A DNA stretch of 16,044 nt from a virus. Its lineage: Duplodnaviria > Heunggongvirae > Uroviricota > Caudoviricetes. A program made the position numbers and the translations under genes. The DNA lies in the IMG/VR virus record IMGVR_UViG_2718217897_000010, positions 1 through 16,044 of that record. One strand, given 5' to 3'. Every line of letters starts with the position of its first letter. Within the stretch, counting starts at the first letter, position 1. The notes under the pieces are model-generated. The model did not search any database. It saw only the letters and a program-made list of their open reading frames with translations, and had not been told where the DNA came from. Shown piece after piece: positions 1 to 16,044 of this stretch.

Positions 1-642
1 TTATGTTTTTGCAATAGTTAAACCAGATCGTTTAATATACTCATCTAACGTGCCAGAGGTGTCATGTATTTTCGCAACATGATAATTGAGTAAGCTAATT
101 TCTTTAGTTTGTAATTTTGGTGGAGGAATATCCGCTCTACCGCCATCCACAGATACCAATAAAAACCTGTCTAGGAATGCTCCGTCGTAATAAAGCTCAT
201 ACCAATATCCAGTTGCTCTGGGATCTGGATAATTGTTAGCCCAATCTTCTATAAAATTTTCACATTGAATTCCTTCATCAATGAACTTGGCTCGAAAACG
301 AAGACGTGGGTCTTCTTTAAGGAATCGTTCGCTAGCCCATTCCCTTGAAATCCCATGCCAATCTTGAGATGGTTCAGTTTTGGGTATGAAATTTAAGATT
401 TCCTCATATGTCATATCTCTGACAGGTTTACGTTCTGGTAAAAAATATTCTGCTACCGATGGGCTGGCTAAGAACAATGAACTAAGCATTCCCAGAGCGA
501 ATGCGATAGGTTCTATATCAAATCCTGATATCCAAAAAAAAGCTGCTATCAAAGCGGCCCCGAAAAAAATCCCCCCCAATACTCTAAGGGGATGTTGATA
601 TTGTTTTATCCATAACCAGATTGGTGTTAACTTAATTTTCAT
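1..642 (-). CDS. hypothetical membrane protein (213 aa): two predicted N-terminal TM helices, then ~150-aa soluble domain
   Basis: Complete ORF with stop codon at 1-3 and ATG at 642. Hydrophobic stretches VLGGIFFGAALIAAFFWISGF and IAFALGMLSSLFLASPSV near the N-terminus. AT-rich coding sequence. No family recognised. Confidence 0.5.
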   Translation of the reverse strand: MKIKLTPIWLWIKQYQHPLRVLGGIFFGAALIAAFFWISGFDIEPIAFALGMLSSLFLASPSVAEYFLPERKPVRDMTYEEILNFIPKTEPSQDWHGISREWASERFLKEDPRLRFRAKFIDEGIQCENFIEDWANNYPDPRATGYWYELYYDGAFLDRFLLVSVDGGRADIPPPKLQTKEISLLNYHVAKIHDTSGTLDEYIKRSGLTIAKT

Positions 643-1153
643 CTGCCATTCCGATTTGTCTAACTTATTTAGAATTAAGAGGTTGAAATTAAGAATAGAT
701 AATCATACTCACTACGGGCTTTGAATTTTGATATTACAATTATTTCATTTTATTTTCAATTAATTATACGTTATTTATTGAACAAGTTTCCATGCCCTCA
801 GTTAACCAAAATGTCCGTTTCTAGCACACAGCAGCCCTATAGACAGTGGAGTAAAGTCATGGAGGATCGGTGGGAGGAGATGCAAATCCTCTCATACAAA
901 AAATACGTAAAATCTATAACAGCTGGAAATCATTCAATACTCGCACTATTGGAAGTTCACCAGCCAACCGCAGCACGTTCTTGCATACGACGTGCCTGCG
1001 GTTTCAACTCCCGCCAGCTCCACCAATCATGATTGGGTGGCGTAAGGATAATACCAACAAAAACAGCAAGTTATCAGTCCAAGCAGGACACCAACCAGAC
1101 GGTGAGGATACAAAAAAAGATACGCAAAGGAGCCGCGGTGCCCTAGTGACTTG

Positions 1154-1176
1154 AAAGCCCACAGATGTGGGCTTTT
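1154..1176 (+). terminator. putative rho-independent terminator (stem AAAGCCCAC / GTGGGCTTT, loop AGAT, followed by TTTTAT)
   Basis: Perfect 9-bp inverted repeat with GC core read directly from sequence; T-run on the plus strand. Not attached to any convincing upstream gene. Confidence 0.4.
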
Positions 1177-1368
1177 ATGGAATAAAGTACTTGAACCAAC
1201 AGCAAGAAATCAGTCTTGATGCTAAGTACTAGTGATGAAGCCACAACAACTGCTCTCATAAAAACGAAGACACTTATCGTGCCACCATCAAAATCTTTGT
1301 GAGTGTATCCATTTCTTTTTACTTGAACAGAGAAAACAATAATGCTGCTTATTTGCACAGTAAAATAA

Positions 1369-1388
1369 TACTGTATACAAACACAGTG
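1369..1388. promoter_or_regulatory. LexA (SOS) box-like operator TACTGTATACAAACACAGTG
   Basis: Matches the CTGT-N8-ACAG core and 16 of 20 positions of the E. coli LexA consensus TACTGTATATATATACAGTA. Overlaps plausible -35/-10 hexamers on both strands (plus strand TTGCAC-17-TACAAA). Confidence 0.5.
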
Positions 1389-1587
1389 TAGAGGAAGTTT
1401 TATGCATATTCCAACTAGCATGAATGTCTTTCTGTCATAAAATTAATGTCTGTTATAAGCAGTGAGCCCAACCGATGCATGCAGCACATAGCGAACCCAA
1501 ATTACAGCCTTTACAGCCACTATTGTTCACCATTAGACAGATGCGAACATTTTCCTGTATGAAGATATTTAGACTGCTTTTATTTGT

Positions 1588-2685
1588 CTAAAAATTCTCT
1601 CTCTTGTGCTGCATTTTACTCTTATTTTCAAGCATAAGAAACATTGCTGCATTTTGCTCCCAAGATATTTTAGATAAAAACATTTTTTTAGAAAATGATT
1701 GTTCCAATTCTCCCAAAAACGAATCAAGCCACCAATAATATTCCCATCCCTTAGTTGTTAATAAAGACTTGGCATTAAAATCCACTGTAACTACCAAACC
1801 TACTGAATAAATTGAAAATGAATTAAACTCTCTACCCAAATAAAGATTTCCAAATTTCATTGGTAGATTAGCCCCGAATCCCTCGAACACAGGGCGATAA
1901 TTAATCTTAAATCTTTTAGTAACAATACTTATACTAGAGTCGCTCTCTCTTGTGAGCGAACTACTTTTGGGAAGAACTATTTCAAAATGGTCAAAAATTG
2001 CGCCTCCATTGCCATATGCATATACAACTTTACCTATAGATGGTAAAGAACTATAATCCATAAATTGCTCACGTTCATCCATAGCTCTAGAAAAAGTATC
2101 AATAAATCTATTCCCCATAAGAACATCAGGAATACTTTTCCTATCTAGTTTAACCAAATAATCATCGGAAAAAGTTTCATCATCATTAAAATAGCTACTT
2201 AAATGAAGAGCAAGTTTTCTTAAAACATAATACTCAATCGCCTCAATAAATAGTGCATTTGCTTTCATTTTTTTGCTATTTATCCCCTTCCCTTTAAAAT
2301 CAAAAGCATAACCAATTGGCCCCTCAGTCCATGATTTATGAATAGCCTTATTTTCCGCGCATAATCCTTTTAGGTAACGGCTAACCTCTTCGGAAAAATC
2401 GTAGCCTTCAATTGATATCAACTCTTTTTTTTCATTGTCTAAACACACAACCCCCTCAAAATCATATTTCCCATTATTCATAGGATAGGCGTTACGCAGA
2501 AAGATTGTGGCACCTAAAATTATTAGTAGCGCACCAACAACAATCATTTTCAAAAATGACAAGTTAAAATAACCAACAACGCCTGATGACAGTATATTTA
2601 CGCCCAAGGCAATTAACACCGCAACAATGAACACTTCGAATATATTTGTTTTAACGGCTAGTAGATCTGCTATTTTTTTCTTCAT
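1588..2685 (-). CDS. hypothetical membrane-anchored protein (365 aa): two N-terminal TM helices plus ~300-aa soluble domain
   Basis: Long ORF in an AT-rich block. N-terminus MKKKIADLL followed by hydrophobic segments FIVAVLIALGVNILSSGVVGYF and MIVVGALLIILGATIFL. No recognisable catalytic motif. Confidence 0.6.
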   Translation of the reverse strand: MKKKIADLLAVKTNIFEVFIVAVLIALGVNILSSGVVGYFNLSFLKMIVVGALLIILGATIFLRNAYPMNNGKYDFEGVVCLDNEKKELISIEGYDFSEEVSRYLKGLCAENKAIHKSWTEGPIGYAFDFKGKGINSKKMKANALFIEAIEYYVLRKLALHLSSYFNDDETFSDDYLVKLDRKSIPDVLMGNRFIDTFSRAMDEREQFMDYSSLPSIGKVVYAYGNGGAIFDHFEIVLPKSSSLTRESDSSISIVTKRFKINYRPVFEGFGANLPMKFGNLYLGREFNSFSIYSVGLVVTVDFNAKSLLTTKGWEYYWWLDSFLGELEQSFSKKMFLSKISWEQNAAMFLMLENKSKMQHKRENF

Positions 2686-2739
2686 AGTGCACCCAATCCA
2701 ACTTATACTCTCATCATTAGCCTACGGCCAAACTCAAAT

Positions 2740-2757
2740 TTGCACTCTTATGTGCAA
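2740..2757. promoter_or_regulatory. inverted repeat TTGCAC-N6-GTGCAA in the upstream region of the 365-aa gene (possible operator)
   Basis: Palindromic hexamers read directly, 55-70 bp upstream of the ATG at 2685 (minus strand). Function is inferred only. Confidence 0.2.
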
Positions 2758-3085
2758 TTGGACCCTCAACACTACAACTTTTATATCTTTATTACAATGC
2801 ATTAAATATAGAGTAGTTAGCTAAGTGCAACGATAGGACAGAATTGTACCCGAAGCACAATATCTACAAACGGTTTAACATTAGTTGCAAGTGCGGACCA
2901 CTTTTTCTATCTGCCTATATTTTCAGGCTGCTGCTGGTCGGTAGTTTCTATGTATAGCCGCTTTCACCGTCAATGACGCATAAAGTCTATCTTTCCCTAC
3001 TTACTGATGAATCAGAACGCGACATTCCACTCATCCTCAGAATCCCTCAGAAGGTTCAATATAACGCCAAGCACCGAAGTTCCGC

Positions 3086-3424
3086 TTATGAGTGAACATG
3101 ATGAACAACTATATCTTGCCCTGTTCTATGGGGATACCAACCACAATAGTGGGACAAACCGCCATTAATTAACTCATGCTCTAAATCTTCGTCCACCAGC
3201 ACGACAAGATGCCGCATACTGCGCCCCAGTCGGTCCAGTTTCCAGACCACCAGCGTATCACCTGCCGATAATGTCCTGAGCAGTTTTTTCAGTCCAGGCC
3301 TTTCGGACTTTGTACCGCTTATCTTGTCTTCAAAAATCAGCTCGCATCCTGCACAGTTCAGCGCATTACGTTGTAGATCTGTGTTCTGGTCATTTGTTGA
3401 CACACGTACATAGCCAATAAGCAT
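3086..3424 (-). pseudogene. DNA invertase (serine recombinase, Hin/Gin/Pin family), 3'-truncated
   Basis: Translation from the ATG at 3424: MLIGYVRVSTNDQNTDLQRNAL...GDTLVVWKLDRLGRSM, the classic invertase N-terminus including the catalytic Ser in RVSTNDQ. The ORF stops after ~112 codons and the C-terminal HTH DNA-binding domain is missing in all frames. The track ORF start at 3460 adds 12 non-homologous residues. Confidence 0.75.
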
Positions 3425-3450
3425 GGTAGATCTCCCTGACAAAAGCAGGA

Positions 3451-3843
3451 ATGATGCCATTTGCTCGTTATTTCTGCATTTTCATAAACGTTGGTTTGGG
3501 AGAAGCGGCCAAATTGCCTGCGATTAGTGGCTCTTTATCATCATCTGGCTGGATAAAAATCCCTGTTATAGAGGGGAAGTCTTTTATTATCCAATGGGGA
3601 AGAATCGGACCTTCTGATAGTAAAACTGGTGTTGCAACAGGAAGTTATCCTATTGCTTTTCCAAATTCTGCATTTATGGCATTTATTGCTGAAAAAACCG
3701 CAGTATCCACAGGCCCAATAGGTATTAATTCCTGGGGAGTATCCGAACTAACAAAAACAGAATTAAAGGCCATTTGTGCTGCAAGGACTATATCAACTTC
3801 AGCCGCAACTGAAACAGGTGATTTTCTGGTACTGGGATATTGA
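3451..3843 (+). pseudogene. side tail fibre C-terminal (variable, receptor-binding) segment; lacks the 5' constant part
   Basis: Contains IIQWG and PIAFPN motifs typical of lambdoid/Mu-type tail-fibre C-termini. Begins at the crossover site. Its stop overlaps the start of the downstream tail-fibre assembly gene (ATGA). No upstream constant tail-fibre region is present on this strand. Confidence 0.6.
3479..3504. other. invertase crossover site-like 26-bp imperfect palindrome (hix/gix/pix-like)
   Basis: TTTTCATAAACG-TT-GGTTTGGGAGAA. The reverse complement TTCTCCCAAACCAACGTTTATGAAAA matches about 20 of 26 positions of hixL as I recall it (TTCTTGAAAACCAAGGTTTTTGATAA). It lies next to the invertase gene and inside the 5' end of the tail-fibre segment, as expected for such switches. 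Confidence 0.45.
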
Positions 3844-4313
3844 GCTTCCATAAGGATTATAAAATGTCGAGCATAATATACTACAGCTCTATAAATAATG
3901 CATTTTACCCTGAGCATTTGAAACAAGAATATATTAAATCTAATTCTTTTCCAGCAGATGCAAAACCCGTTAAATATTCTGTTTTCGAAGAATTTGCACT
4001 TAAACCAGCACCAGAAGGAAAATACAGGTGCGTTGGTGAAGATGGAATGCCATCATGGGCAGATATTCCACCACCAACACATGAGGAACAGATTGCCGCA
4101 GCCGAATTGAAAAAGCAGCAATTGATTAACCAGGTCAACGAATACATGAACAGTAAACAATGGCCCGGTAAAGCGGCTATTGGTCGTCTGAAAGGTGAGG
4201 AACTGGCGCAATATAATCTGTGGCTGGATTACCTGGACGCACTGGAAATGGTCGATACTTCCAGTGCTCCAGATATTGAATGGCCTACGCCTCCGGCAGT
4301 TCAGGCCAGATGA
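3840..4313 (+). CDS. tail fibre assembly protein (Tfa family)
   Basis: 157 aa. N-terminus YYSSINNAFYPEHLKQEY and C-terminus LWLDYLDALEMVDTSSAPDIEWP are typical of Tfa/gpU-type chaperones. Translationally coupled to the fibre segment upstream. Confidence 0.8.
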   Translation: MSFHKDYKMSSIIYYSSINNAFYPEHLKQEYIKSNSFPADAKPVKYSVFEEFALKPAPEGKYRCVGEDGMPSWADIPPPTHEEQIAAAELKKQQLINQVNEYMNSKQWPGKAAIGRLKGEELAQYNLWLDYLDALEMVDTSSAPDIEWPTPPAVQAR

Positions 4314-4722
4314 CATCTGGCGCGGTGCTGGTATCAGTTGCCGTCACCGCGTCAATGTAATCCAGCACAGCGTTAAGGCGGGTTGTTTCTGTCTGCGTCA
4401 GTTTACGTCCGGCCTGCAATTTCAGTTGAATCAGACTGATGGAAGCCATTGCTGCATCAATTAGTAACTGGCGCTGTGCTTCTGCCGCGTCTACTGCGGC
4501 ACTGTGTTGTGCCTCAGTGTCTGTCACCCATTTCTCACCATCCCATTTATCGTATGGCGTTAACGGTGAAAGCGTGACATAACCGTCTTTGATGGCACCG
4601 ATATAATCCACTGTAACAGCTGCGCCATTTTCGATTGAGTAAACAGTCTCATTGCGATGGTCTTCTTCATGGCTCCATCCCTTACCTGTAAATATTGGCA
4701 TGGGGTAAGATTTCCGGCTCAT
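4285..4722 (-). CDS. tail fibre assembly protein (Tfa family), second copy in opposite orientation
   Basis: 145 aa. C-terminus AVLDYIDAVTATDTSTAPDVIWPELPEA is the conserved Tfa motif. Converges on the plus-strand Tfa with a 29-bp 3' overlap, as in Mu G / e14 P invertible segments. Confidence 0.75.
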   Translation of the reverse strand: MSRKSYPMPIFTGKGWSHEEDHRNETVYSIENGAAVTVDYIGAIKDGYVTLSPLTPYDKWDGEKWVTDTEAQHSAAVDAAEAQRQLLIDAAMASISLIQLKLQAGRKLTQTETTRLNAVLDYIDAVTATDTSTAPDVIWPELPEA

Positions 4723-5222
4723 GATTCGTTAATTTTCAGAAACGGGTTAGTGGCTTTCTTCTGCCCCGCCAGGCCAATCAGACGCTGGCGGCTGCTGGGG
4801 TCGAGTCCGAGCATTGCCCCCGTGCTGCTCATCTCGGACTCCTGTTCTTTTTTGGCGGTCAGCTCCGGATTTTTGACCCTGCCGCCCATTGCACCGGTGA
4901 TGGTGTTGCCCTGTATGGCAATATTTTTCACGGCACGTCGCCAGAACTCATAGGCCACGCACCACCGCTCAAGTACCGCCAGGTCAGTCACGCACAGCAG
5001 ACCCTGACCGCAGAGTTCTTTGGTTGTCAGTTGCCACATGATCGTGGCGAGAGGGAGATCTTCTTCAGCGAACCACTCCGGTGGCTCAACACCTTTGATG
5101 GGCGTAAAAACAGGTTCATCTTTGTTCAGGGCTCGCTTGCCGGGGTTTCCGGCCAGCGCCTTGCGCGCCGTTGGCTTGGGGCGACGCCCGGAACGCCCCG
5201 CCGTTCCAGCCATATGCGGCAC
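4719..5222 (-). CDS. phage terminase small subunit (P27-family-like)
   Basis: 167 aa. N-terminus MAGTAGRSGRRPKPTARKALAGNPGKRALNKDEP is characteristic of P27-type TerS. Its stop overlaps the start of the Tfa gene (ATGA), so no large terminase or structural genes follow. Confidence 0.65.
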   Translation of the reverse strand: MPHMAGTAGRSGRRPKPTARKALAGNPGKRALNKDEPVFTPIKGVEPPEWFAEEDLPLATIMWQLTTKELCGQGLLCVTDLAVLERWCVAYEFWRRAVKNIAIQGNTITGAMGGRVKNPELTAKKEQESEMSSTGAMLGLDPSSRQRLIGLAGQKKATNPFLKINES

Positions 5223-5338
5223 TCCTGGTTAAATTTCATTTTTCGCGGGTATAAAAAAACGATGGGGCGGGCAGTCCGGAAGACGTCAGGCCGCAGGGAT
5301 TTGACCCGCCCCTCCCCTCAAGCAGTTGAGAATTATTA
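5223..5338. other. putative cos / packaging-initiation region between HNH and terS
   Basis: Intergenic, with GC-rich inverted repeat GGGGCGGG (5264-5271) ... CCCGCCCC (5305-5312). HNH-cos-terS is the usual order in HK97-like cos phages (from memory). Confidence 0.3.
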
Positions 5339-5764: not shown

Positions 5765-6676
5765 TCAGTACTTAAATAAGAATTTGCTATTACTTTGAAA
5801 TTGAGATGGTGTGGTTGCAATCGGACTAGATGTCGCAGCTATCTCTTCAAGTAACTCAGCTTTCCAGACATGCCCTAGTTGCAAAGATTCACTATGCGAC
5901 ACTTTGTATTCTGCAGCACTAACGACTTGTTCTAAGAAAAGATCACTGTTTAGCATTTGCATACTTGCATAAACGCCAAGGAAATGAATTTTCATTCCCA
6001 TATCCATGATCATATTCCCTTCTTTTGTAAGATAACCACTGTGCGTGACATAGAATGCCGGAGAGCCTGACATTCCAGGGAAAGCAGAAATATCGACAAC
6101 TATTAATTTCTTCCCATCGAAATCGATATCTGGCTCACTCGCTAAGCTTCCTGTTTTCCATATTGGAAGGTAGTGAGTCGTGTCATGATAACCATGAGGA
6201 TATCCAATCATTACAACAGGAGATGAGGGGTTTATCTGGACATTAGGCAGTGTCGTTGTTTTTGAGACTACTTTTACTCCTGTGTTTACAAACAACTCTT
6301 GAGGCAAAGGCATCAAGATAATGTCTGCCTCTTTATCTGTGGGGTGCTCCAACCACAGCGGTGAACCATCTTTAAACAGAGGCATCGTATGTTTGAATAG
6401 TTTTCCGGTTTTATCTCTCAGCTGAATATCAATACTATCGCCTATAAATGGCTTTACACCCCTTTCGGATGGGCTGATTCCAGTTATTACATGATAGTTA
6501 GTTGCAAGGAAAATGAAACCATTGCTATGTTGATAAAAGAACCCAGTACCTAACGACTTTGACTCTCCATTAGACCTCAAAATTACTAAAGTAGTTACCA
6601 GAGATAGCGGCTGTACGTTTTGCATAAAATTCATCCAACATGAACTTCGATATAGGTTGTAAAAGCATACAATCAT
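5765..6676 (-). CDS. trypsin-like (chymotrypsin-fold) serine protease, cytoplasmic; start codon uncertain
   Basis: Candidate catalytic triad in the canonical order: His in ATNYHVITG, Asp in EADIILMPL, Ser in GMSGSPAF (GDSGGP-like). No signal peptide. AT-rich. Alternative starts at internal Met15 or Met18 (MNFMQNV). Confidence 0.6.
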   Translation of the reverse strand: MIVCFYNLYRSSCWMNFMQNVQPLSLVTTLVILRSNGESKSLGTGFFYQHSNGFIFLATNYHVITGISPSERGVKPFIGDSIDIQLRDKTGKLFKHTMPLFKDGSPLWLEHPTDKEADIILMPLPQELFVNTGVKVVSKTTTLPNVQINPSSPVVMIGYPHGYHDTTHYLPIWKTGSLASEPDIDFDGKKLIVVDISAFPGMSGSPAFYVTHSGYLTKEGNMIMDMGMKIHFLGVYASMQMLNSDLFLEQVVSAAEYKVSHSESLQLGHVWKAELLEEIAATSSPIATTPSQFQSNSKFLFKY

Positions 6677-6742
6677 TCCAGAAAATTCTTAACCAACTAT
6701 TTCCAATATATGAATCGCCAATTCCGATCTAGCTATATAACC

Positions 6743-7015
6743 TCACTTTTCAGCAGAGTTTTTCTCCGAAAGCAGGTGCTCACTCTTTCTAATGTCTAAC
6801 TTATCCCTATTACAAGACGCCAGCGCCGACAACAGGCTTACGTTCAAATCCAGGCTCCCACTCCATGTCAGCGGGTCGGGGATAGCTGGTTGCGGAGTTT
6901 CAGCGGTCAGATTCGCTAGTAGTGGTACCGCCGAAACTGGTACGTAAACTGTCCGCGTACCGGCGCAGCCGTTCAGCTGCACGAGCAGGAACAGGACGGG
7001 CAGCGCAATCATCAT
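6743..7015 (-). CDS. Rz1-like o-spanin (outer-membrane lipoprotein), overlapping the 3' end of Rz in a different frame
   Basis: MMIALPVLFLLVQLNGC followed by a proline-rich mature region (VPVSAVP, TPQPAIPDP). Starts inside Rz and runs past its stop. Lipobox LNGC is non-ideal and the signal peptide lacks a basic residue; the start may instead be the in-frame ATG at 7081. Confidence 0.4.
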   Translation of the reverse strand: MMIALPVLFLLVQLNGCAGTRTVYVPVSAVPLLANLTAETPQPAIPDPLTWSGSLDLNVSLLSALASCNRDKLDIRKSEHLLSEKNSAEK

Positions 7016-7292
7016 TCGCAAAAGCCATTTTGATATCAGCCTGGGTTCTCTGTGACTCCAGTGCGATCTGCTGTTTTGCATGCTGGTTAGCCTCCAGTAC
7101 TGTATTGACGATTTGTAGTGATTGCAGGACGTTATTAGTAATGGCAGTTGCCGATTTGGCATTTTGTACAGCCTCATCAGCACGTTTCTTTTCGTGCTGA
7201 TATTTGCTGTAGTAGTGGTTGGTTGACCAGATGAAAGAACAGACGACAGTTAAAAGGAAAGCAGCGATAATCAGCTTATAGCTCAACTTCAT
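6900..7292 (-). CDS. Rz-like i-spanin
   Basis: 130 aa with one N-terminal TM helix (LIIAAFLLTVVCSFIW) and a charged, probably coiled-coil periplasmic domain. Immediately downstream of the endolysin and overlapping it. Confidence 0.55.
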   Translation of the reverse strand: MKLSYKLIIAAFLLTVVCSFIWSTNHYYSKYQHEKKRADEAVQNAKSATAITNNVLQSLQIVNTVLEANQHAKQQIALESQRTQADIKMAFANDDCAARPVPARAAERLRRYADSLRTSFGGTTTSESDR

Positions 7293-7752
7293 TTACCACC
7301 CCACCAGCCTCTTTAAACCTGGCAATCAGGTCACCGATTTTATGTTCATACTGACCATAACCAGCGCCCGGCAGTGAAGCCCAGATATTGCTGCAACGGT
7401 CGATTGCCTGACGGATATCACCGCGATCAATCATCGGTAAAGCGCCACGCTCTTTAATCTGCTGTAATGCCACGGAGTCCTGGCTTCTGGGAGAGAAGTC
7501 TTTCAGCCCTAGCTGCTTGCGGTAGGCATCCCACCAACGGGAAAGAAGCTGGTAACGTCCGGCTGCTGTTGATTTGAGTTTCGGGTTTAGCGTGACAAGT
7601 TTGCGAGGATGATCGGAGTAATCAGTAAACAGTTCACCACCGACAATGACATCATAACCGTGGTTACGTGTCGGTTGTCGCCCGTTATCCGTTCCTTCTG
7701 ACCATGCAACCATATCCAAGAAAGCTTTACGCTGGGAATTTAGTGCCTGCAT
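7276..7752 (-). CDS. R: endolysin, lambda R-like lytic transglycosylase
   Basis: 158 aa. NSQRKAFLDMVAWSEGTDNGRQPTRNHGYDVIVGGELFTDYSDHPRKLVTLNPKLKS ... is near-identical along its length to lambda R as I recall it, including the catalytic Glu in WSEGT. Confidence 0.9.
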   Translation of the reverse strand: MQALNSQRKAFLDMVAWSEGTDNGRQPTRNHGYDVIVGGELFTDYSDHPRKLVTLNPKLKSTAAGRYQLLSRWWDAYRKQLGLKDFSPRSQDSVALQQIKERGALPMIDRGDIRQAIDRCSNIWASLPGAGYGQYEHKIGDLIARFKEAGGVVNEVEL

Positions 7753-7755
7753 AAA

Positions 7756-8082
7756 TTACTCCTTCGAGCTACCAAATTTGTTACCGATTACTCGCATTGC
7801 AGCCCCACGAATTGCATCGACACCAATCAGCCCAACACCGCCACCAATGGCAACAGAAAGAGATTTAGGCCATCCGACATACTCAAGAGCGGATGCAAAA
7901 GTCAGCGTCAGAGCACCACAGAGCAAAATCTCGAGCGTTTTTCGTTTCCAGCCACCACCACCGCCAAAATAGGCAATGCGCAAGCCAGCCATAACGATCG
8001 ACATAATCACTGCGCCCAGCGGTGTGTCTCCACGCCACCAGCTCTGGAACAACTCCAGCCAGGTATTTGGGTTATGAGGCAT
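7756..8082 (-). CDS. holin (class I, three TM segments, lambda S-like size)
   Basis: 108 aa with three hydrophobic segments and a charged C-terminus (NKFGSSKE). Sits directly upstream of the endolysin with 3-bp spacing. Confidence 0.7.
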   Translation of the reverse strand: MPHNPNTWLELFQSWWRGDTPLGAVIMSIVMAGLRIAYFGGGGGWKRKTLEILLCGALTLTFASALEYVGWPKSLSVAIGGGVGLIGVDAIRGAAMRVIGNKFGSSKE

Positions 8083-8234
8083 TTGTAGTTATCTCTCACC
8101 TCGCTGATACAGCAGGTGCAAATTGAGGGAACATCATGTACAGCAAATTAGAAGCGGAAACGTCAAAGAAGCCGAACCAATGGATAACTGCGGAATAGAC
8201 CAGGACCAACGAATCCCCAGCCCCAGAAACGACA

Positions 8235-8256
8235 AAACCCGCTCGACGGCGGGTTT
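8235..8256 (-). terminator. putative intrinsic terminator on the minus strand upstream of the holin (tR'-like position)
   Basis: Hairpin AAACCCGC-TCGACG-GCGGGTTT. On the minus strand the GC stem is followed by TTTTGTCGTTTCT. Confidence 0.35.
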
Positions 8257-8367
8257 AAGCTGTGTGGCGAAGTAACCACTCTTAACACGATACAATAATT
8301 TTTGCGTACGCGTTAGCGTTTTTGTAAGATTAACAAATAAATCGAAAAATCATAATCGGATGATTTC

Positions 8368-9390
8368 ATGGCAAAATTAAATGCTAGCGAAAGACTCGTT
8401 ACTCATCATAGTCTGACCATTGACACAAAGTTTAGAACCAAGGCAACACAAGAGGTAAAAGCCCAGTGTATATGTCCTGTTCCGGAAATGTACATGCTTG
8501 CCCCATTGATTGTTAAACAAAAGGGACTCGTTCATTCATATGATTCTGGGAATATTGTAGTTACTCTCCAAGATGTACAACTTTATCCTTTACTTCCAGA
8601 TAACTCACCCACGCATATTGTCCTTCTTATTAATAGTGTTGATAAAAATGGAAGTACTACCGTTGTAAAAAATATAAATACTAATGAACGCGTTGAAATC
8701 CAACCAAAATATGAACAAGGTGAAGGCTATGAAGTTTCTACCTATGTTGTCATATCATTAAATGGAAATAAAAGAACCTATGATATGATTTGTACATCTA
8801 CCCCAGGTGTATCTACGGCCCGGTTAAATAGTTTTTTAGACAAAATTCTCTTTGAAGTGGCGAAAGACAATGAAGACTTATTTACCGCAAAACATCCAAC
8901 TAACGTTATTTCTGCAACATCAAAAAAAGAAGTAAAAATACGATACAAACCAATATTTGAATTTACAGGAATGTTAGACAAGGAGCTTTTTAATAAAATA
9001 AGCCAAAAAGGATTATCAGATGTCATATTAGTCAAGGATCAATTCGGAACAATTAATGCTCCTGATGTTAACTCACCTTACATTCCGACTGAAAGTACAT
9101 TAAAATTACTTCCAAATCATGGTGACAATGTTATTGGATGGATTAAAAATGTAGCATCTCATTTCAATAAAAAAATGAATGGTGGTTATGATAAATTAAA
9201 GGTTAAATTCCAAGATCCTGAAACAAATAAACCAAGGCAGGTTGATTTCAAAACCTCAAACATCAATCTTAATAATTTAGAAAAAACATTTATTAAGAAA
9301 AGCATTATCGATAACTTTAATTCGCGCCTGAAGGATTCATATGTTAAAATTGAGCTAGAGTTTGTTGTGAAAATGATAGATTTGATGTGA
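8368..9390 (+). CDS. hypothetical soluble protein (340 aa), first gene of an AT-rich two-gene cargo operon
   Basis: ORF with ATG at 8368. Strongly AT-rich, Asn/Lys/Ser/Thr-rich, no TM segment, no recognisable NTPase, nuclease or NTase motif. 7-bp gap to the downstream gene, which has its own SD (GTGAGG). Confidence 0.6.
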   Translation: MAKLNASERLVTHHSLTIDTKFRTKATQEVKAQCICPVPEMYMLAPLIVKQKGLVHSYDSGNIVVTLQDVQLYPLLPDNSPTHIVLLINSVDKNGSTTVVKNINTNERVEIQPKYEQGEGYEVSTYVVISLNGNKRTYDMICTSTPGVSTARLNSFLDKILFEVAKDNEDLFTAKHPTNVISATSKKEVKIRYKPIFEFTGMLDKELFNKISQKGLSDVILVKDQFGTINAPDVNSPYIPTESTLKLLPNHGDNVIGWIKNVASHFNKKMNGGYDKLKVKFQDPETNKPRQVDFKTSNINLNNLEKTFIKKSIIDNFNSRLKDSYVKIELEFVVKMIDLM

Positions 9391-9397
9391 GGTTATT

Positions 9398-9982
9398 ATG
9401 CCAATACTTTCAGTTTTCTCTCATCTAGGCAAGCCGTTTGGATATCTTTTTATTAAAGGTATTAGCGGCAAAGCTGCATATGATTGGGTAGCGCCAATTC
9501 TACTTACTTCTATCACAGCAGTACTTTTCATTCTATTAAAAATCCCTGTCAAAGATTTATTTGATGACAATGGTTTCATTAAATCAATCGTTTCATTTAT
9601 CTCTAACCTACCAGGGTTTTATATTGCCGCTCTGGCCGCCATAGCAACTTTCAATAGAGCTGAGATTGATTTACCATTGATTAGCAATGAAAGAAATGCC
9701 TCTATTGAAATAAAAGTAACAAAAGAAAATGGAAAAGTAGTAAATTCAGAGGAGGTTCTGACCAGACGATTATTTCTTTGCATGCTATTCTCTTTTTTAA
9801 CAGCATTAAGCATTGTTATAATAATACTTAATGCTATATTTTCACCATTAATCAATGTCTATCAAAACAGTTTTGTTTTAATGGTTTATACTGTTGTATT
9901 TACTTTCCTCGTTTGGCAACTCTTAGTATCAACTTTCTTTGGATTATATTATCTCGGAAACAGAATTCATATGAATTATTAA
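9398..9982 (+). CDS. hypothetical integral membrane protein (194 aa, four predicted TM helices)
   Basis: Hydrophobic segments at about residues 30-49, 64-85, 125-148 and 159-186, with a ~40-residue charged loop between TM2 and TM3. Coupled to the upstream 340-aa gene. Confidence 0.6.
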   Translation: MPILSVFSHLGKPFGYLFIKGISGKAAYDWVAPILLTSITAVLFILLKIPVKDLFDDNGFIKSIVSFISNLPGFYIAALAAIATFNRAEIDLPLISNERNASIEIKVTKENGKVVNSEEVLTRRLFLCMLFSFLTALSIVIIILNAIFSPLINVYQNSFVLMVYTVVFTFLVWQLLVSTFFGLYYLGNRIHMNY

Positions 9983-10002
9983 GCCCTACAGGGGCTTAAT
10001 AA
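9976..10002. repeat. 11-bp perfect inverted repeat TTATTAAGCCC-TACAG-GGGCTTAATAA spanning the stop codons of two convergent genes
   Basis: Read directly. The left arm contains the TAA stop of the 194-aa gene (9980-9982) and the spacer/right arm contains the TAG stop of the Q-like gene (9986-9988). Confidence 0.6.
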
Positions 10003-10378
10003 TCAACAAAATACCTTCAATCACTCCTATTGCTGCTTGAAGTTGTTTTCTGATTGACCCGTCAGAGCATTTCCGTTTCTTTGCTATTGAACGGAGTGAA
10101 ATACCGATAACAAAGTGAGCAATGATCAGTTCATATTCTTCTGGCTTATATTTCCGCATTCGCGCAACACAGCTGTCAATCATGATTCCTTCATCATCAT
10201 CGCATTGTTGGCGTGTTTTCTTTCCATGAGGTAGTAAACCTTTAAACCCTGCAGCAACAGGCTGCCAGTCCACACCACTGTTAACCGCGGGAAAATTTCC
10301 GAAGAAGACACCACCGAAACGCCGATGTATGTCAATCGCGGTGGTCGCCTGACTATTCTGCAGGAAGACCAGGGACAA
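9986..10378 (-). CDS. Q-like late antiterminator (phage 21/QuuD-type); non-ATG (TTG) start, possibly defective
   Basis: 130 aa containing AAGFKGL, CDDDEGIMIDSCVARM and CSDGSIRKQLQAAIGVIEGIL, which resemble phage-21-type Q proteins as I recall them. The ORF begins with TTG directly after an in-frame TAA; the first internal ATG is at codon ~66. Confidence 0.5.
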   Translation of the reverse strand: MSLVFLQNSQATTAIDIHRRFGGVFFGNFPAVNSGVDWQPVAAGFKGLLPHGKKTRQQCDDDEGIMIDSCVARMRKYKPEEYELIIAHFVIGISLRSIAKKRKCSDGSIRKQLQAAIGVIEGILLIIKPL

Positions 10379-10497
10379 TTACTGACTCTTGCCGGTGAGC
10401 CTGACGGAAAATTACGCGCAGCAGGTCATTAATATCGTTCTTAATTAACTGATTATTTATCTCATCACTGAATATCTTTATATAGTGAGGACTTATT

Positions 10498-11322
10498 ATG
10501 TCTCAGAACTTAGACGCAACCGCAATTAATCAAATCCATGCCCTTATTTCTGCTCAGGGTGTTAATGAAATTATCAGTAAGATTGGTGCCGATGCTGTGG
10601 CATTGCCTGAGAATTTCCGCATTCATGATCTGGAAAAATTTAATTTAAATCGCTTCCGTTTCCGTGGTGCGCTTTCCACTGCCAGCATCGATGACTTTAC
10701 CCGTTATTCTAAAGATCTTGCAGATGAAGGCACCCGCTGCTTTATCGATGCTGATAATATGCGTGCCGTCAGTGTACTTAACCTGGGTACTATTGATGAA
10801 CCAGGTCACGCAGATAACACCGCCACTCTCAAACTGAAAAAGACAGCACCGTTCTCTGCCCTGTTGTCTGTTAACGGCGAGCGTAACTCCCAGAAGTCAC
10901 TGGCAGAATGGATCGAAGACTGGGCCGACTACCTTGTGGGCTTTGATGCTAATGGTGATGCCATTCAGGCAACAAAAGCGGCTGCGGCAGTCCGTAAAAT
11001 CACGATTGAAGCAAACCAGACCGCTGATTTTGAAGACAATGACTTCAGCGGCAAACGCTCCCTGATGGAGTCTGTCGAAGCGAAGACCAAAGATATTATG
11101 CCTGTGGCATTTGAATTTAAATGCGTTCCGTTTGAAGGCCTGAAAGAACGTCCGTTTAAATTACGCCTCAGCATTATCACTGGCGATCGTCCTGTACTGG
11201 TTCTGCGCATTATTCAGCTGGAAGCAGTGCAGGAAGAAATGGCTAACGAATTTCGTGATCTGCTTGTTGAGAAATTCAAGGACAGCAAAGTAGAAACCTT
11301 TATTGGTACTTTCACCGCCTGA
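10498..11322 (+). CDS. DUF2303 / YfdQ-like prophage early-region protein
   Basis: 274 aa with good SD (GTGAGGA). Sequence resembles the CPS-53 prophage YfdQ family (from memory). Confidence 0.7.
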
Positions 11323-11334
11323 TTTCATTACTGC

Positions 11335-11356
11335 AAATGCCCCTGCGGGGGCATTT
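11335..11356 (+). terminator. putative terminator hairpin AAATGCCCC-TGCG-GGGGCATTT after the YfdQ-like gene
   Basis: 9-bp perfect inverted repeat 13 bp past the stop. The T-run is short and partly inside the stem, so strength is uncertain. Confidence 0.35.
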
Positions 11357-11449
11357 ATGGAAACGTAATTGACTCAATAATCGCCGGATGGTGAGGGCTT
11401 CCTTTTACCAGAATTCAGCGCGGTGCAGCGCATATACGTGGAGAACAAA

Positions 11450-11986
11450 ATGTCATTTATTAAAACTTTTTCCGGGAAGCATTTTTATTATGACAGGATA
11501 AATAAAGACGACATCGTTATTAACGATATCGCGGTTTCTCTTTCAAATATCTGTCGCTTTGCAGGGCATCTTTCACATTTCTACAGCGTTGCCCAACATG
11601 CGGTGCTTTGCAGCCAACTGGTACCGCAGGAATTTGCTTTTGAAGCGTTAATGCATGATGCAACAGAAGCGTATTGCCAGGACATCCCGGCGCCACTGAA
11701 ACGCCTTCTTCCTGACTATAAACGGATGGAAGAAAAAATAGATGCAGTAATCCGTGAGAAATACGAGTTGCCCCCGGTTATGAGCACGCCTGTGAAATAT
11801 GCCGATCTAATCATGCTGGCAACCGAACGCCGTGATCTCGGGCTTGATGATGGCTCTTTATGGCCTGTACTGGAAGGTATCCCGGCAACAGAGATGTTCA
11901 AAGTTATTCCACTGGCACCGGGCCATGCCTACGGGATGTTTATGGAACGCTTCAACGAGTTATCGGAATTACGCAAATGTGCATAA
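11450..11986 (+). CDS. HD-domain metal-dependent phosphohydrolase (YfdR-like 5'-deoxynucleotidase family)
   Basis: 178 aa from the ATG at 11450, preceded by GGAGA. Contains the HD motif in ALMHDATEAY. The track ORF start at 11423 is GTG and adds 9 residues. Confidence 0.75.
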   Translation: MSFIKTFSGKHFYYDRINKDDIVINDIAVSLSNICRFAGHLSHFYSVAQHAVLCSQLVPQEFAFEALMHDATEAYCQDIPAPLKRLLPDYKRMEEKIDAVIREKYELPPVMSTPVKYADLIMLATERRDLGLDDGSLWPVLEGIPATEMFKVIPLAPGHAYGMFMERFNELSELRKCA

Positions 11987-12855
11987 CTCATGTAGTTAGT
12001 TTTTCTGGCGGGAGAACATCCGCATATCTTGTTCACCTGATGGAAGAACAAAGAAAGGCTGGCAATAACGTCTGCTACATCTTTATGGATACCGGTTGCG
12101 AACATCCGCTGACATACCGCTTTATCCGGGAGGTTGTGAAGTTCTGGGACATACCACTAACTGTGTTACAGGTCGATATAAATCCTGAGCTTGGGCAGCC
12201 AAATGGTTATACAGAATGGGAGCCAAAGGATATTCAGACACGAATGCCGGTGCTTAAACCGTTTATGGACATGGTTAAAAAGTACGGCACGCCATACATC
12301 GGCGGCGCGTTCTGTACTGATAGGCTAAAACTCATCCCTTTCACGAAATACTGCGATAACCATTTCGGGCGAGGTAATTACATCACATGGCTGGGTATTC
12401 GTGCAGACGAACCCCGTAGGCTGAAACCGAAATCGGGCGTCCGGTATCTTGCCGAGCTGTCAGATTTTGATAAGTCGGATGTTATCCGGTGGTGGCGAAA
12501 ACAACCTTTTGATTTGCAAATCCCGGAGCATCTCGGGAACTGTGTTTTCTGCATCAAAAAGTCAACGCAAAAGCTGGGGCTTGCATGTAAAGACGAACCA
12601 GGTCTGATGCGAGTTTTTAATGAGCTGGTTACAGGCAAACACGTCAGGGATGGTCATCGCAGAACAGGTAAAGACATTATGTACCGTGGTCACCTGACGC
12701 TTGACGGAATTGCCAGAATGTCTGCCAACAGCGACTACAGAAATTTGTATCAGGCGATGGTACAGGCCAGGCGATTCGATACCGGCTCGTGTTCAGAGTC
12801 ATGTGAAATCTGGGGTGATCAATTGGAATTGGAATTCAAAGAGGTAGGGGTATGA
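11977..12855 (+). CDS. PAPS-reductase-like (PP-loop ATP pyrophosphatase superfamily) protein
   Basis: PP-loop motif SFSGGRTS near the N-terminus. Start MCITHVVSFSGG at 11977 overlaps the upstream stop. C-terminal cysteines (CVFC, CSESC). Confidence 0.7.
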   Translation: MCITHVVSFSGGRTSAYLVHLMEEQRKAGNNVCYIFMDTGCEHPLTYRFIREVVKFWDIPLTVLQVDINPELGQPNGYTEWEPKDIQTRMPVLKPFMDMVKKYGTPYIGGAFCTDRLKLIPFTKYCDNHFGRGNYITWLGIRADEPRRLKPKSGVRYLAELSDFDKSDVIRWWRKQPFDLQIPEHLGNCVFCIKKSTQKLGLACKDEPGLMRVFNELVTGKHVRDGHRRTGKDIMYRGHLTLDGIARMSANSDYRNLYQAMVQARRFDTGSCSESCEIWGDQLELEFKEVGV

Positions 12856-13196
12856 CAACCGAAATTAACTACCATGCACTGCTTGAGCGCGCACGGAATA
12901 AAGTGCAGAGCATTGAGTTCGCCTTAACACAGAGTGCATTCGCTGAGATTCGCGCTGAGCTTGAAAATGATTTAGAACTGGCACGGATTGCACTGGCATC
13001 TCTGGAAGTTGAGCCAGATGAACGCGCAGCCTATGAATTATTTATGGAAAAGCGTTTCGGTAAAACAGTCGATCGTCGGAGAGCAAAAAACGGCGATAAC
13101 GAATACATGGCATGGGATATGACTCTCGGTTGGATCGTCTGGCAGCAACGAGCTGGTATCCATTTTTCAACAATGTCACAGCAAGAGGTGAAATAA
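12852..13196 (+). CDS. hypothetical early-region protein (114 aa)
   Basis: Translationally coupled on both sides: ATGA overlap with the upstream gene and TAATG overlap with xis. Confidence 0.55.
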   Translation: MTTEINYHALLERARNKVQSIEFALTQSAFAEIRAELENDLELARIALASLEVEPDERAAYELFMEKRFGKTVDRRRAKNGDNEYMAWDMTLGWIVWQQRAGIHFSTMSQQEVK

Positions 13197-13546
13197 TGGA
13201 GCCATACAGCCTCACACTCGATGAGGCCTGTCATTTTCTCAAGATATCCAGACCGACTGCCATTAACTGGATACGCACAGGGCGTCTTCAGGCAACACGC
13301 AAAGATCCCACTAAGAATAAATCTCCTTACCTCACAACACGACAAGCCTGCATTGCGGCTCTTCAGTCTCCGCTGCATACTGTCCAGGTGAGCGCGGGTG
13401 ATGGCATAACAGAGGAAAGAAAATGTCACTCTTCCGCAGAGGTGAAATATGGTACGCCAGTTTCACATTGCCGAACGGTAAAAGATTTAAACAGTCTCTT
13501 GGAACAAAGGACAAAAGGCAGGCGACAGAACTCCATGACAAGCTAA
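13196..13546 (+). CDS. xis: excisionase (P22 Xis-like)
   Basis: [38 protein letters not shown] is an HTH excisionase N-terminus. About 116 aa, overlapping the 5' end of int in another frame, as in P22. Confidence 0.7.
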
Positions 13547-14586
13547 AGGCTGAAGCATGGCGGGTCAGCAAACTTGGTGAAATACCTGATATAACGTTCG
13601 AGGAAGCGTGTGTCAGGTGGCTTGAAGAGAAAGCACATAAAAAATCACTGGACGATGACAAAAGCCGGATCGGATTCTGGCTTCAACATTTCGCAGGAAT
13701 GCAACTAAGAGACATTACTGAATCAAAAATTTATTCAGCAATGCAGAAAATGACGAACCGGCGTCATGAGGAAAACTGGAAACTCAGGGCAGAAGCATGC
13801 AGAAAAAAAGGGAAACCTGTTCCAGAATACACGCCAAAACCAGCGTCCGTTGCAACGAAGGCTACGCATCTTTCATTTATAAAGGCCCTACTAAGAGCCG
13901 CAGAGCGTGAATGGAAAATGCTGGATAAGGCACCAATTATTAAAGTGCCTCAACCAAAGAATAAACGGATCCGCTGGCTGGAGCCCCATGAAGCACAAAG
14001 GCTGATTGATGAATGTCCGGAGCCATTAAAGTCTGTTGTTGAATTTGCACTGGCAACAGGCTTAAGACGCTCGAACATCATCAACCTTGAATGGCAACAA
14101 ATAGACATGCAGCGCCGGGTGGCATGGATAAACCCGGAAGAGAGTAAATCAAACCGCGCAATTGGCGTTGCGCTGAATGATACTGCATGTCGCGTATTGA
14201 AAAAACAAATCGGGAATCATCACCGTTGGGTATTTGTGTACAAGGAAAGCTGTACCAAACCAGACGGAACGAAAGCGCCAACGGTCAGGAAGATGCGGTA
14301 TGACGCAAACACAGCCTGGAAAGCGGCGCTGAGACGGGCTGGTATTGATGATTTCAGATTTCACGACTTGAGACACACCTGGGCAAGCTGGCTGGTTCAA
14401 GCCGGAGTCCCGTTGTCAGTGTTACAGGAAATGGGAGGCTGGGAGTCTATCGAAATGGTTCGTCGATATGCTCACCTTGCACCTAATCACCTTACCGAAC
14501 ACGCACGGCAAATAGACTCGATCCTGAACCCATCGGTCCCAAATTTGTCCCAGTCAAAAAATAAGGAAGGTACTAATGATGTGTAA
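13423..14586 (+). CDS. int: tyrosine site-specific integrase (P22 Int-like, 387 aa)
   Basis: N-terminus [49 protein letters not shown]-terminal catalytic region [39 protein letters not shown] carries the conserved H-x-x-R and Tyr. Ends 14 bp from the tRNA 3' end. Confidence 0.9.
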
Positions 14587-14600
14587 CTTATTGATTTAAA

Positions 14601-14676
14601 TGGTGCCGATAATAGGAGTCGAACCTACGACCTTCGCATTACGAATGCGCTGCTCTACCAACTGAGCTATATCGGC
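14601..14676 (-). tRNA. thrW: tRNA-Thr (anticodon CGU)
   Basis: The reverse complement folds as a canonical cloverleaf: acceptor stem GCCGATA/TATCGGC, anticodon loop TTCGTAA, T-arm GGTTCGACTCC, 3' CCA encoded. Confidence 0.95.
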
Positions 14677-14790
14677 CCTGAAAGGACATGTTCACGAACG
14701 TGAATCACGGTGGACAAGGTTAAAACTAACCGGGCGATGCGTCAATGGCCTTGTGAATCAAATGGCTACTTTTGCATCACCCGGTTTTAT

Positions 14791-16044
14791 TTACGCACGA
14801 ATGGTGTAATCACCAATGCCGATCCACTTGTAAGTGGTCAGTGCTTCCAGCCCCATTGGGCCACGTGCGTGCAGTTTTTGTGTGCTTACCGCCACTTCCG
14901 CACCCAGTCCAAACTGGCCGCCGTCGGTAAAACGCGTAGAGGCGTTAACGTAAACAGCGGACGAATCCACTTCGTTAACAAAACGCTGGGCGTTGCGCAT
15001 ATCGCGGGTCAGGATCGCATCGGAGTGTTGCGTGCCGTGTTCACGAATATGGGCGATGGCATCGTCAAGATCGCTGACGATTTTGACGTTCAAATCTAAT
15101 GACAGAAACTCATCGTCATACTCTTCGGCTTTAACCGCCACCACCTTCGCGGGGCCTGCCTGCAACTGTGTCAGCGCAGCTGCATCTGCGTGTAATGTCA
15201 CGCCGCTTTCCGCCATTTGTTTGCTTAATACGGGCAGGAAGCTATCGGCGATGTTTTTATTCACCAGCAACGTTTCTACCGTATTACATGTGCTCGGACG
15301 CTGAGTTTTGGCGTTGACGATCACTTTTAATGCTTCAGCGATCTCTGCACTTTCATCAACGTAAATATGGCATACGCCTATACCACCTGTGATCACCGGG
15401 ATCGTCGACTGTTCGCGGCACAGTTTATGCAAACCAGCGCCACCACGCGGGATCAGCATGTCGATGTATTTATCCATACGCAGCATTTCACTGACCAGCG
15501 CACGGTCAGGATTATCAATCGCCTGCACGGCACCCGCCGGTAAGCCGCAGGATTTCAGGGCGTCCTGAATCACCGCCACCGTTGCAGCGTTAGTGCGACA
15601 CGTTTCTTTGCCACCGCGCAGGATCACCGCATTACCGGTTTTCAGGCACAGCGAAGCGACATCAACCGTCACGTTCGGGCGCGCTTCATAAATCACGCCA
15701 ATAACCCCCAGCGGTACGCGACGACGCTCAAGACGCAGGCCGCTGTCCAGTACGCCGCCATCGATTACCTGCCCCACCGGATCGGCGAGGTTGCACACCT
15801 GACGTACATCGTCGGCAATGCCTTTCAGCCGTGCGGGCGTCAGTGCCAGACGGTCAAGCATCGCTTCGCTAAGGCCATTGGCTCGCGCGTCAGCAACATC
15901 CTGGGCGTTAGCGTTGAGGATGATTTCGCTTTGTGCTTCCAGTTCATCGGCGATTTTTTCCAGCACGCGATTTTTTTCGCGGCTGGAGAGTTGCGCTAAT
16001 TTATACGAGGCTTGCTTCGCGGCAATGCCCATTTGTTCCAGCAT
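14791..16044 (-). CDS. proA: gamma-glutamyl phosphate reductase
   Basis: 417-aa [41 protein letters not shown] ... matches E. coli ProA along its full length (from memory). The ATG is at the window edge (16042-16044). Confidence 0.95.

Follow-up and report, generated by a model that had tools for sequence, protein, structure and literature searches.

The question raised by this locus is where, and by what kind of event, a prophage lost its large terminase together with all of its head and tail genes, leaving a small terminase gene that appears to run directly into a tail-fibre assembly gene. The stretch of DNA analysed, here called the window, comprises the 16,044 nucleotides of the IMG/VR record IMGVR_UViG_2718217897_000010. 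An earlier note on this DNA had observed that the terS ORF ends in ATGA overlapping the start of a minus-strand ORF, which is correct at 4722–4719, and that a 12-mer at 4733–4744 matches 11 of 12 bases of a recombination half-site at 3479–3490, which is also true. The overlap was taken there as the deletion junction and the 12-mer as a possible relic of a lost second site. Our comparison leads to a different reading, which is very probably the right one: the locus carries the scar of an illegitimate deletion, the ATGA overlap is native, the ORF behind it is chimeric and the 12-mer is a chance match.

Judged from its relatives, the window is a defective SfV/e14-like prophage of E. coli, integrated at thrW beside proA and decayed. 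Positions 1–3513 are 99.4% identical to the right end of the near-intact prophage of FDAARGOS_1337, and 12998–16044 correspond to the int–thrW–proA end of the same prophage, with the same insertion site and the same flanks. The interval 4701–16044 matches a prophage found between thrW and proA in numerous strains of E. coli, TW10828 among them. The thrW gene itself (tRNA-Thr CGU) occupies 14601–14676. The gene order in FDAARGOS_1337 runs from integrase, lambdoid early region, Q and lysis genes to HNH, terS (P27 family), terL, ymfR, portal and HK97-type head genes, followed by sheath, tube, tape measure and baseplate, and it ends with a tail protein, tfa, a convergent tfa, a gp53-like tail-fibre cassette and a truncated pinE. 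The phage type combines a lambdoid early region and HNH–TerS(P27)–TerL packaging with a head of the HK97 type, a contractile tail like that of Mu and a tail-fibre tip invertible by Pin. The same tail and Pin module is present in E. coli e14. An origin of the left and right halves of the window from different chromosomal sites was considered, as GPEC1035 has the left-hand module beside prfC; it was discarded, since in FDAARGOS_1337 a single prophage at thrW–proA is bordered by both flanks.

The outer limits of the element can be seen in a 64-bp repeat of the thrW 3′ end (att repeat), found at 14583–14646 of the window and at 11956–12019 of the near-identical contig L047. The latter copy is situated ~1.24 kb to the left of the window's first base, and the ORFs at 1–642 and 1588–2685, which are unannotated and have no Pfam match, are therefore prophage cargo inside the element.

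The small terminase gene was compared with that of intact phages. The terS gene (4719–5213, minus strand) encodes a P27-family small terminase subunit (Pfam Terminase_4, 72.5 bits against a cut-off of 24.7). It is full length, 164 aa, and has its native stop; length and stop are the same in SfV orf1, SfII_01 and TW10828 WP_000929168. In the phages TerS ends in ...ATNPFLKIIES and in the window in ...KINES, the sole C-terminal difference being I162N. The suggestion that the last terS codons are derived from a tail fibre is contradicted by this comparison, as TerS of intact phages ends at the same stop with that one substitution. The stop codon TGA occupies 4721–4719 and the ATG at 4722–4720 opens a 145-aa ORF, the two overlapping in ATGA at 4719–4722 (TCAT on the plus strand). 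The annotated terS and terL genes share the same 4-nt overlap in TW10828 (3019–3022 of record L002), FDAARGOS_1337, SfII and SfV, and base-by-base alignment gives identical ATGA bases across the aligned relatives. The terS–terL region as a whole is 97–99% identical in the isolated Shigella phages SfII (99.1%), SfIV, SfV and SfI. Hence the overlap that had been read as a deletion junction is the native translational-coupling overlap of terS and terL. Of the large-terminase partner that should follow, only 22 nt are left in the window; the terS gene is intact, the packaging module non-functional. The genome records of SfI, SfV and SfII start with bases that map to ~5262–5338, between HNH and terS. 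This interval is presumably the cos region, in which case the remnant keeps HNH, cos and terS without terL.

The real position of the joint emerged from the alignment with intact relatives that the earlier note had proposed. Relatives carrying terS–terL, both E. coli records and isolated phages, are homologous to the window from 5400 down to exactly 4701 and no further. In the E. coli search all 25 matches listed begin at query position 102, with 1112 records holding at least 80% of the query, and in the phage search all matches listed (SfV, SfII, SfIV, SfI and others) begin at query position 417; local BLAST and alignments place the boundary at 4701 as well. From the other side, tfa relatives match 4300–4694 and reach 4700 with two mismatches. 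The identity over 4300–4694 to the full-length tfa of GPEC1035 and GF31 is 94.7%. The joint therefore lies at 4694–4701, 18–27 nt inside the ORF and about 20 bases past the ATGA.

The ORF opened by the ATGA (4285–4722, minus strand) is accordingly composed of two genes. The stub at 4701–4722 holds terL codons 1–7 and the first base of codon 8, and the translation begins with MSRKSYP, exactly the first seven residues of TerL. Codons 63–197 and the stop of a 197-aa tfa allele occupy 4285–4694. Across the joint the coding strand reads ATG AGC CGG AAA TCT TAC CCC, then ATG CCA ATA, then TTT ACA GGT; MSRKSYP is followed by MPI and FTGKGWSHEEDHRNE..., in which FTGKGW corresponds to residues 63–68 of the full-length 197-aa Tfa. 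The resulting 145-aa product, TerL(1–7)–MPI–Tfa(63–197), includes the peptide MSRKSYPMPIFTGK. It gives a Caudo_TAP score of 93.4 bits against a cut-off of 22.1, with the whole Pfam profile (2–131 of 131) aligned at residues 24–144. A native tfa N-terminus is missing, for Tfa residues 1–59 are absent, 60–62 are altered and the first seven codons are those of TerL. Since homology extends to 4701 in every relative, the ATG is the own start of terL and not that of tfa. The chimera resembles a normal tfa gene abutting terS because the joint is in frame and the terL start has been kept.

Between the two parental sequences lies a short zone, TTGGCA at 4695–4700, which in a three-way alignment agrees with tfa at four of its six bases and with terL at two; no usable microhomology was found at the joint in this alignment. 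The bases that deviate from tfa are 4695 and 4698 (C>T and C>G on the plus strand). Both positions are C in all 117 tfa copies that a degenerate pattern retrieved from 115 viral contigs. No exact match to a tfa allele with both odd bases was present in the viral contigs, and among 690 E. coli records even the best match differs at 2 positions over 4600–4700. A search of the window and its relatives for a template of the junction bases gave only chance 8–11-mers, and neither an IS end nor foreign sequence longer than 6 nt was found at the joint. As 4695 and 4698 match neither sampled parent, the exact break is uncertain by at most 6 nt, and the two bases may be filler, junction-associated mutation or part of an unsampled tfa allele. 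If the ancestral tfa reads ...ATACTGCCAC..., they are junction-associated changes; if it reads ...ATATTGGCA..., the break falls cleanly between 4700 and 4701.

In FDAARGOS_1337 coordinates the missing interval is 17461–34729 of record L046, or 17,269 bp. The proposal that one joint removed everything from large terminase to tail fibre stands in so far as a single stretch of ~17.3 kb is missing, the 5′ part of tfa included; its placement at the ATGA does not stand. We propose that one illegitimate deletion of ~17.3 kb, neither homologous nor site-specific, joined terL base 22 to tfa codon 60–63 on the same strand. Lost with it are terL, the portal, head, tail and baseplate genes, the complete tail-fibre gene including the second crossover site, and ~60 codons from the start of tfa; terS itself is untouched, and the terL start now opens the TerL(1–7)–Tfa(63–197) chimera. 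Demonstrated are the two homology breaks, the conserved terS end, the identity of the terL stub, the place of the true partner site and, by independent data, the reality of the joint; the single event and the RecA-independent illegitimate joining are inferred. No genome was found that represents the direct undeleted ancestor, with the same tfa allele and the same terS allele; a single event is therefore the parsimonious reading.

The left part of the window retains what is left of the inversion switch. An invertase crossover site, TTTTCATAAACG TT GGTTTGGGAGAA, lies at 3479–3504 directly beside the truncated pin gene and is an imperfect 12-2-12 dyad scoring 24/24, the same dyad as in the Hin, Gin, Cin and Pin sites (hix, gix, cix and pix). 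In relatives this site is accompanied by an inverted partner in the tail-protein gene, 1.83–1.85 kb away, with 20-nt arms that are 95% complementary; examples are 34066–34091 of record L046 (CTCTCGAAAACC TT GGTTTGGGAGAA) and, in O157, 9716–9741 of record L049, where pinE is intact. This spacing is consistent with the 1,797 bp of the e14 P segment, and invertible segments of about 1.8 kb have been described for e14 (PMC12529663). No partner was found in the window. The true one lies wholly in the deleted interval, ~0.65 kb in from its tfa edge, so that the remaining site is an orphan and inversion is impossible here. The alternative tail-fibre C-terminal cassette at 3451–3843 (plus strand; Gp53-like_C, 37.9 bits) reads across the crossover site, and its homologues carry the same annotation. 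It is followed by the second, convergent tfa of the invertible segment at 3864–4313 (plus strand; Caudo_TAP, 122 bits), 149 aa from the ATG at 3864, which is called at the same length in L047. The pin gene (3086–3460, minus strand) covers positions 2–88 of the 145 of the Resolvase profile. Its relatives in FDAARGOS_1337 and GPEC1035 are annotated as pinE pseudogenes that lack the C-terminus as well; the same truncation in undeleted relatives means that the pin truncation and the dead inversion switch predate the terL–tfa deletion.

Could the 12-mer near the end of terS be a trace of the lost partner, with the joint exactly at the ATGA and the last terS codons derived from a tail fibre? The look-alike TTTTCAGAAACG (4733–4744, plus strand) differs from TTTTCATAAACG at one base and sits 10 bp from the stop codon of terS, next to which a match of 11/12 to a genuine half-site does invite the thought. 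The two are the only matches in the window at one mismatch or fewer. Nevertheless, the earlier note had also allowed that the likeness may be due to chance, and this part of it was borne out. Dinucleotide shuffles give 0.15–0.20 expected matches per window for one half-site, and when either half-site and both strands are allowed, at least one match occurs in 23% of Markov-1 simulated windows. Taken as a 12-2-12 site, 4733–4758 scores 11/12 on the left and 3/12, the chance level, on the right; 65 of the 16,019 positions in the window score at least as high as its total of 14/24. Its central dinucleotide is GG, compared with TT in the true site, and it lies on the same strand as the half-site at 3479, in direct orientation. 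Unlike hix, gix, cix and pix, it thus has one half only, a different centre and no inverted arrangement, and it is located in terS coding sequence. Read antisense, the 12-mer corresponds to terS codons P157-F-L-K-I161, and it is identical in terS of GF31, TW10828, FDAARGOS_1337, SfII and SfV. Moreover, viable SfV and SfII as well as intact prophages carry the same or almost the same 3′ end of terS, with its stop and the 22 nt beyond, and the true partner is found elsewhere, in the tail-protein gene inside the deleted interval. Intact phages thus end TerS alike, I162N aside, with the 12-mer inside conserved terS, the outcome that the earlier note itself had named as speaking against its reading. 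An origin of the 12-mer from the lost site is refuted, and the look-alike is conserved terS coding sequence that matches by chance and is not a site.

A related thought is that an invertase of the Pin type, either the prophage's own enzyme or a paralogue supplied in trans, brought about the deletion by recombining pseudo-sites in the terL and tfa genes. Paralogues of Pin do act in trans on the invertible segment of another prophage (PMC12529663), the joint is ~1.2 kb from a genuine site, and the terL parent has the 7-mer ACGTTGG in common with the core of the true site. The likeness ends there: no 26-mer overlapping the terL breakpoint scores 13/24 or more, and only one on the tfa side reaches 13/24, a level that ~1% of all positions of the 40-kb reference reach or surpass. 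Inspection of the alignment in the register of the terL 7-mer gives the tfa side ~2/12 half-site identity, and the central dinucleotides are AC as against TT. The 2-bp staggered exchange of serine recombinases does not tolerate differing central dinucleotides. Site-specific exchange is also conservative, which does not agree with the two unexplained substitutions at the joint, and the local pin was truncated already before the deletion. A Pin-mediated deletion was rejected because both parental breakpoints score at background as pseudo-sites, and we consider it highly improbable. A course of two or more successive rearrangements, for instance a smaller deletion at first, or the insertion of an IS accompanied by loss of neighbouring DNA, is very unlikely, though it draws some support from the prophage itself: at least one other large deletion is present, at 10282/10283, related remnants show different independent deletions, and 4695 and 4698 could be debris of an earlier joint. 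Against it, homology is seen to break off just once between terL and tfa, and the joint is free of any IS end or foreign insert longer than 6 nt.

For an assembly artefact or a chimeric contig there is no positive evidence, the sole point in its favour being that the joint is absent from the complete RefSeq E. coli genomes. The exact fusion protein occurs on five contigs from at least two independent sources; among them, the NCBI assembly GCA_965266795.1 and the Logan assembly of SRR23103688 hold the identical protein and joint, base-identical in the latter. Both flanks also lie at the same chromosomal site as in FDAARGOS_1337. The probability of an artefact is vanishingly small. The terL–tfa joint was found in none of 5,426 complete E. 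coli genomes, and an exact scan of one-genome-per-species contigs with the 18-mer ending at the joint (4683–4700) gave only chance matches in unrelated bacteria. Given its absence from complete genomes, the joint is a rare, lineage-specific scar.

It may be asked whether the chimera, putatively expressed, has been retained for a function, for example interference with the tail-fibre assembly of superinfecting phages, so that the odd bases would perhaps be adaptive, or otherwise a signature of unusual end joining. We regard this as very unlikely. The upstream Q antiterminator is truncated, and no protection was seen with TfaP or TfaE (PMC12529663).

The right part of the window shows further features. 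A second deletion joint is present at 10282–10283, where 7.6 kb are missing relative to the TW10828 prophage (6583–14194 of record L004). The N-terminus of the Q antiterminator was cut by this deletion, positions 19–112 of the 118 of its Pfam profile being left, and DUF968, KilA-N, RusA, a replication HTH gene, ymfL and cro/cI-like regulators were lost as well. Two genes between Q and holin, 8368–9390 and 9398–9982 (both plus strand, opposite to their neighbours), resemble PADLOC PDC-M53A (2e-32) and PDC-M53B (3e-54), respectively, and form a candidate defence pair that is also present in TW10828; neither reaches the curated threshold of any Pfam family. A gene for a trypsin-like S1 peptidase at 5765–6676 (minus strand), between the lysis cassette and HNH, is similar to the PADLOC candidate PDC-S45 (6e-42).

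Comparable arrangements are known from other prophages. In K-12 DLP12 the order is nohD, aaaD (a terL pseudogene stub) and tfaD; as in the window, the small terminase is intact, a 5′ stub of terL is joined to tfa, and all head and tail genes are lost. The hallmarks of a DLP12-kind scar are all present in the window, namely an intact terS, a terL 5′ stub, a distal tail-fibre module joined to it and the absence of morphogenesis genes. The differences are that DLP12 has a terminase of the lambda Nu1/A type and the window one of the P27 type, that the stub measures ~300 bp compared with 22 nt, and that the annotated start of tfaD is its own and falls within the stub region, while the chimera of the window uses the terL start. 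In K-12 Qin (nohA, stfQ, tfaQ, pinQ) the small terminase is likewise joined directly to a distal tail-fibre/tfa/pin module, the morphogenesis genes having been lost. Unlike the window, which has neither a tail-fibre gene nor a partner site and whose pin is truncated, Qin retains a portion of its tail-fibre gene, and its pinQ is intact. This pinQ is active in trans (PMC12529663). The phages SfV, SfII, SfIV and SfI have the same ATGA overlap as the window and a terS–terL junction 97–99% identical to it. These phages, which integrate at thrW, are complete and viable, whereas in the window the morphogenesis genes (17.3 kb) are missing together with another 7.6 kb of the early region. Two other remnants show independent deletions in the same style. 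In GF31 (8440–8658 of record L001) 73 codons of terL are followed by the tail-protein gene, and in the thrW remnant of O157:H7 TR01 (10073–10333 of record L049) a replication gene is followed by the tail-protein gene, with pinE intact and both crossover sites present. The scar of the window is a further independent instance of a known pattern of prophage decay.

The terL–tfa scar opens no new biological question, and its meaning lies in annotation and in the course of prophage decay. Where a deletion is in frame and the start codon of the lost gene survives, gene callers and readers label the resulting ORF 'tail fiber assembly protein', and such a chimera appears coupled to terS though its first seven codons are those of TerL. 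Beyond this caution, the locus illustrates a recurrent route of decay in enterobacterial prophages, in which the morphogenesis genes are lost and the terS side is kept together with the distal tail-fibre/tfa/pin module, a pattern also seen in DLP12, Qin, the O157 thrW remnant and GF31.
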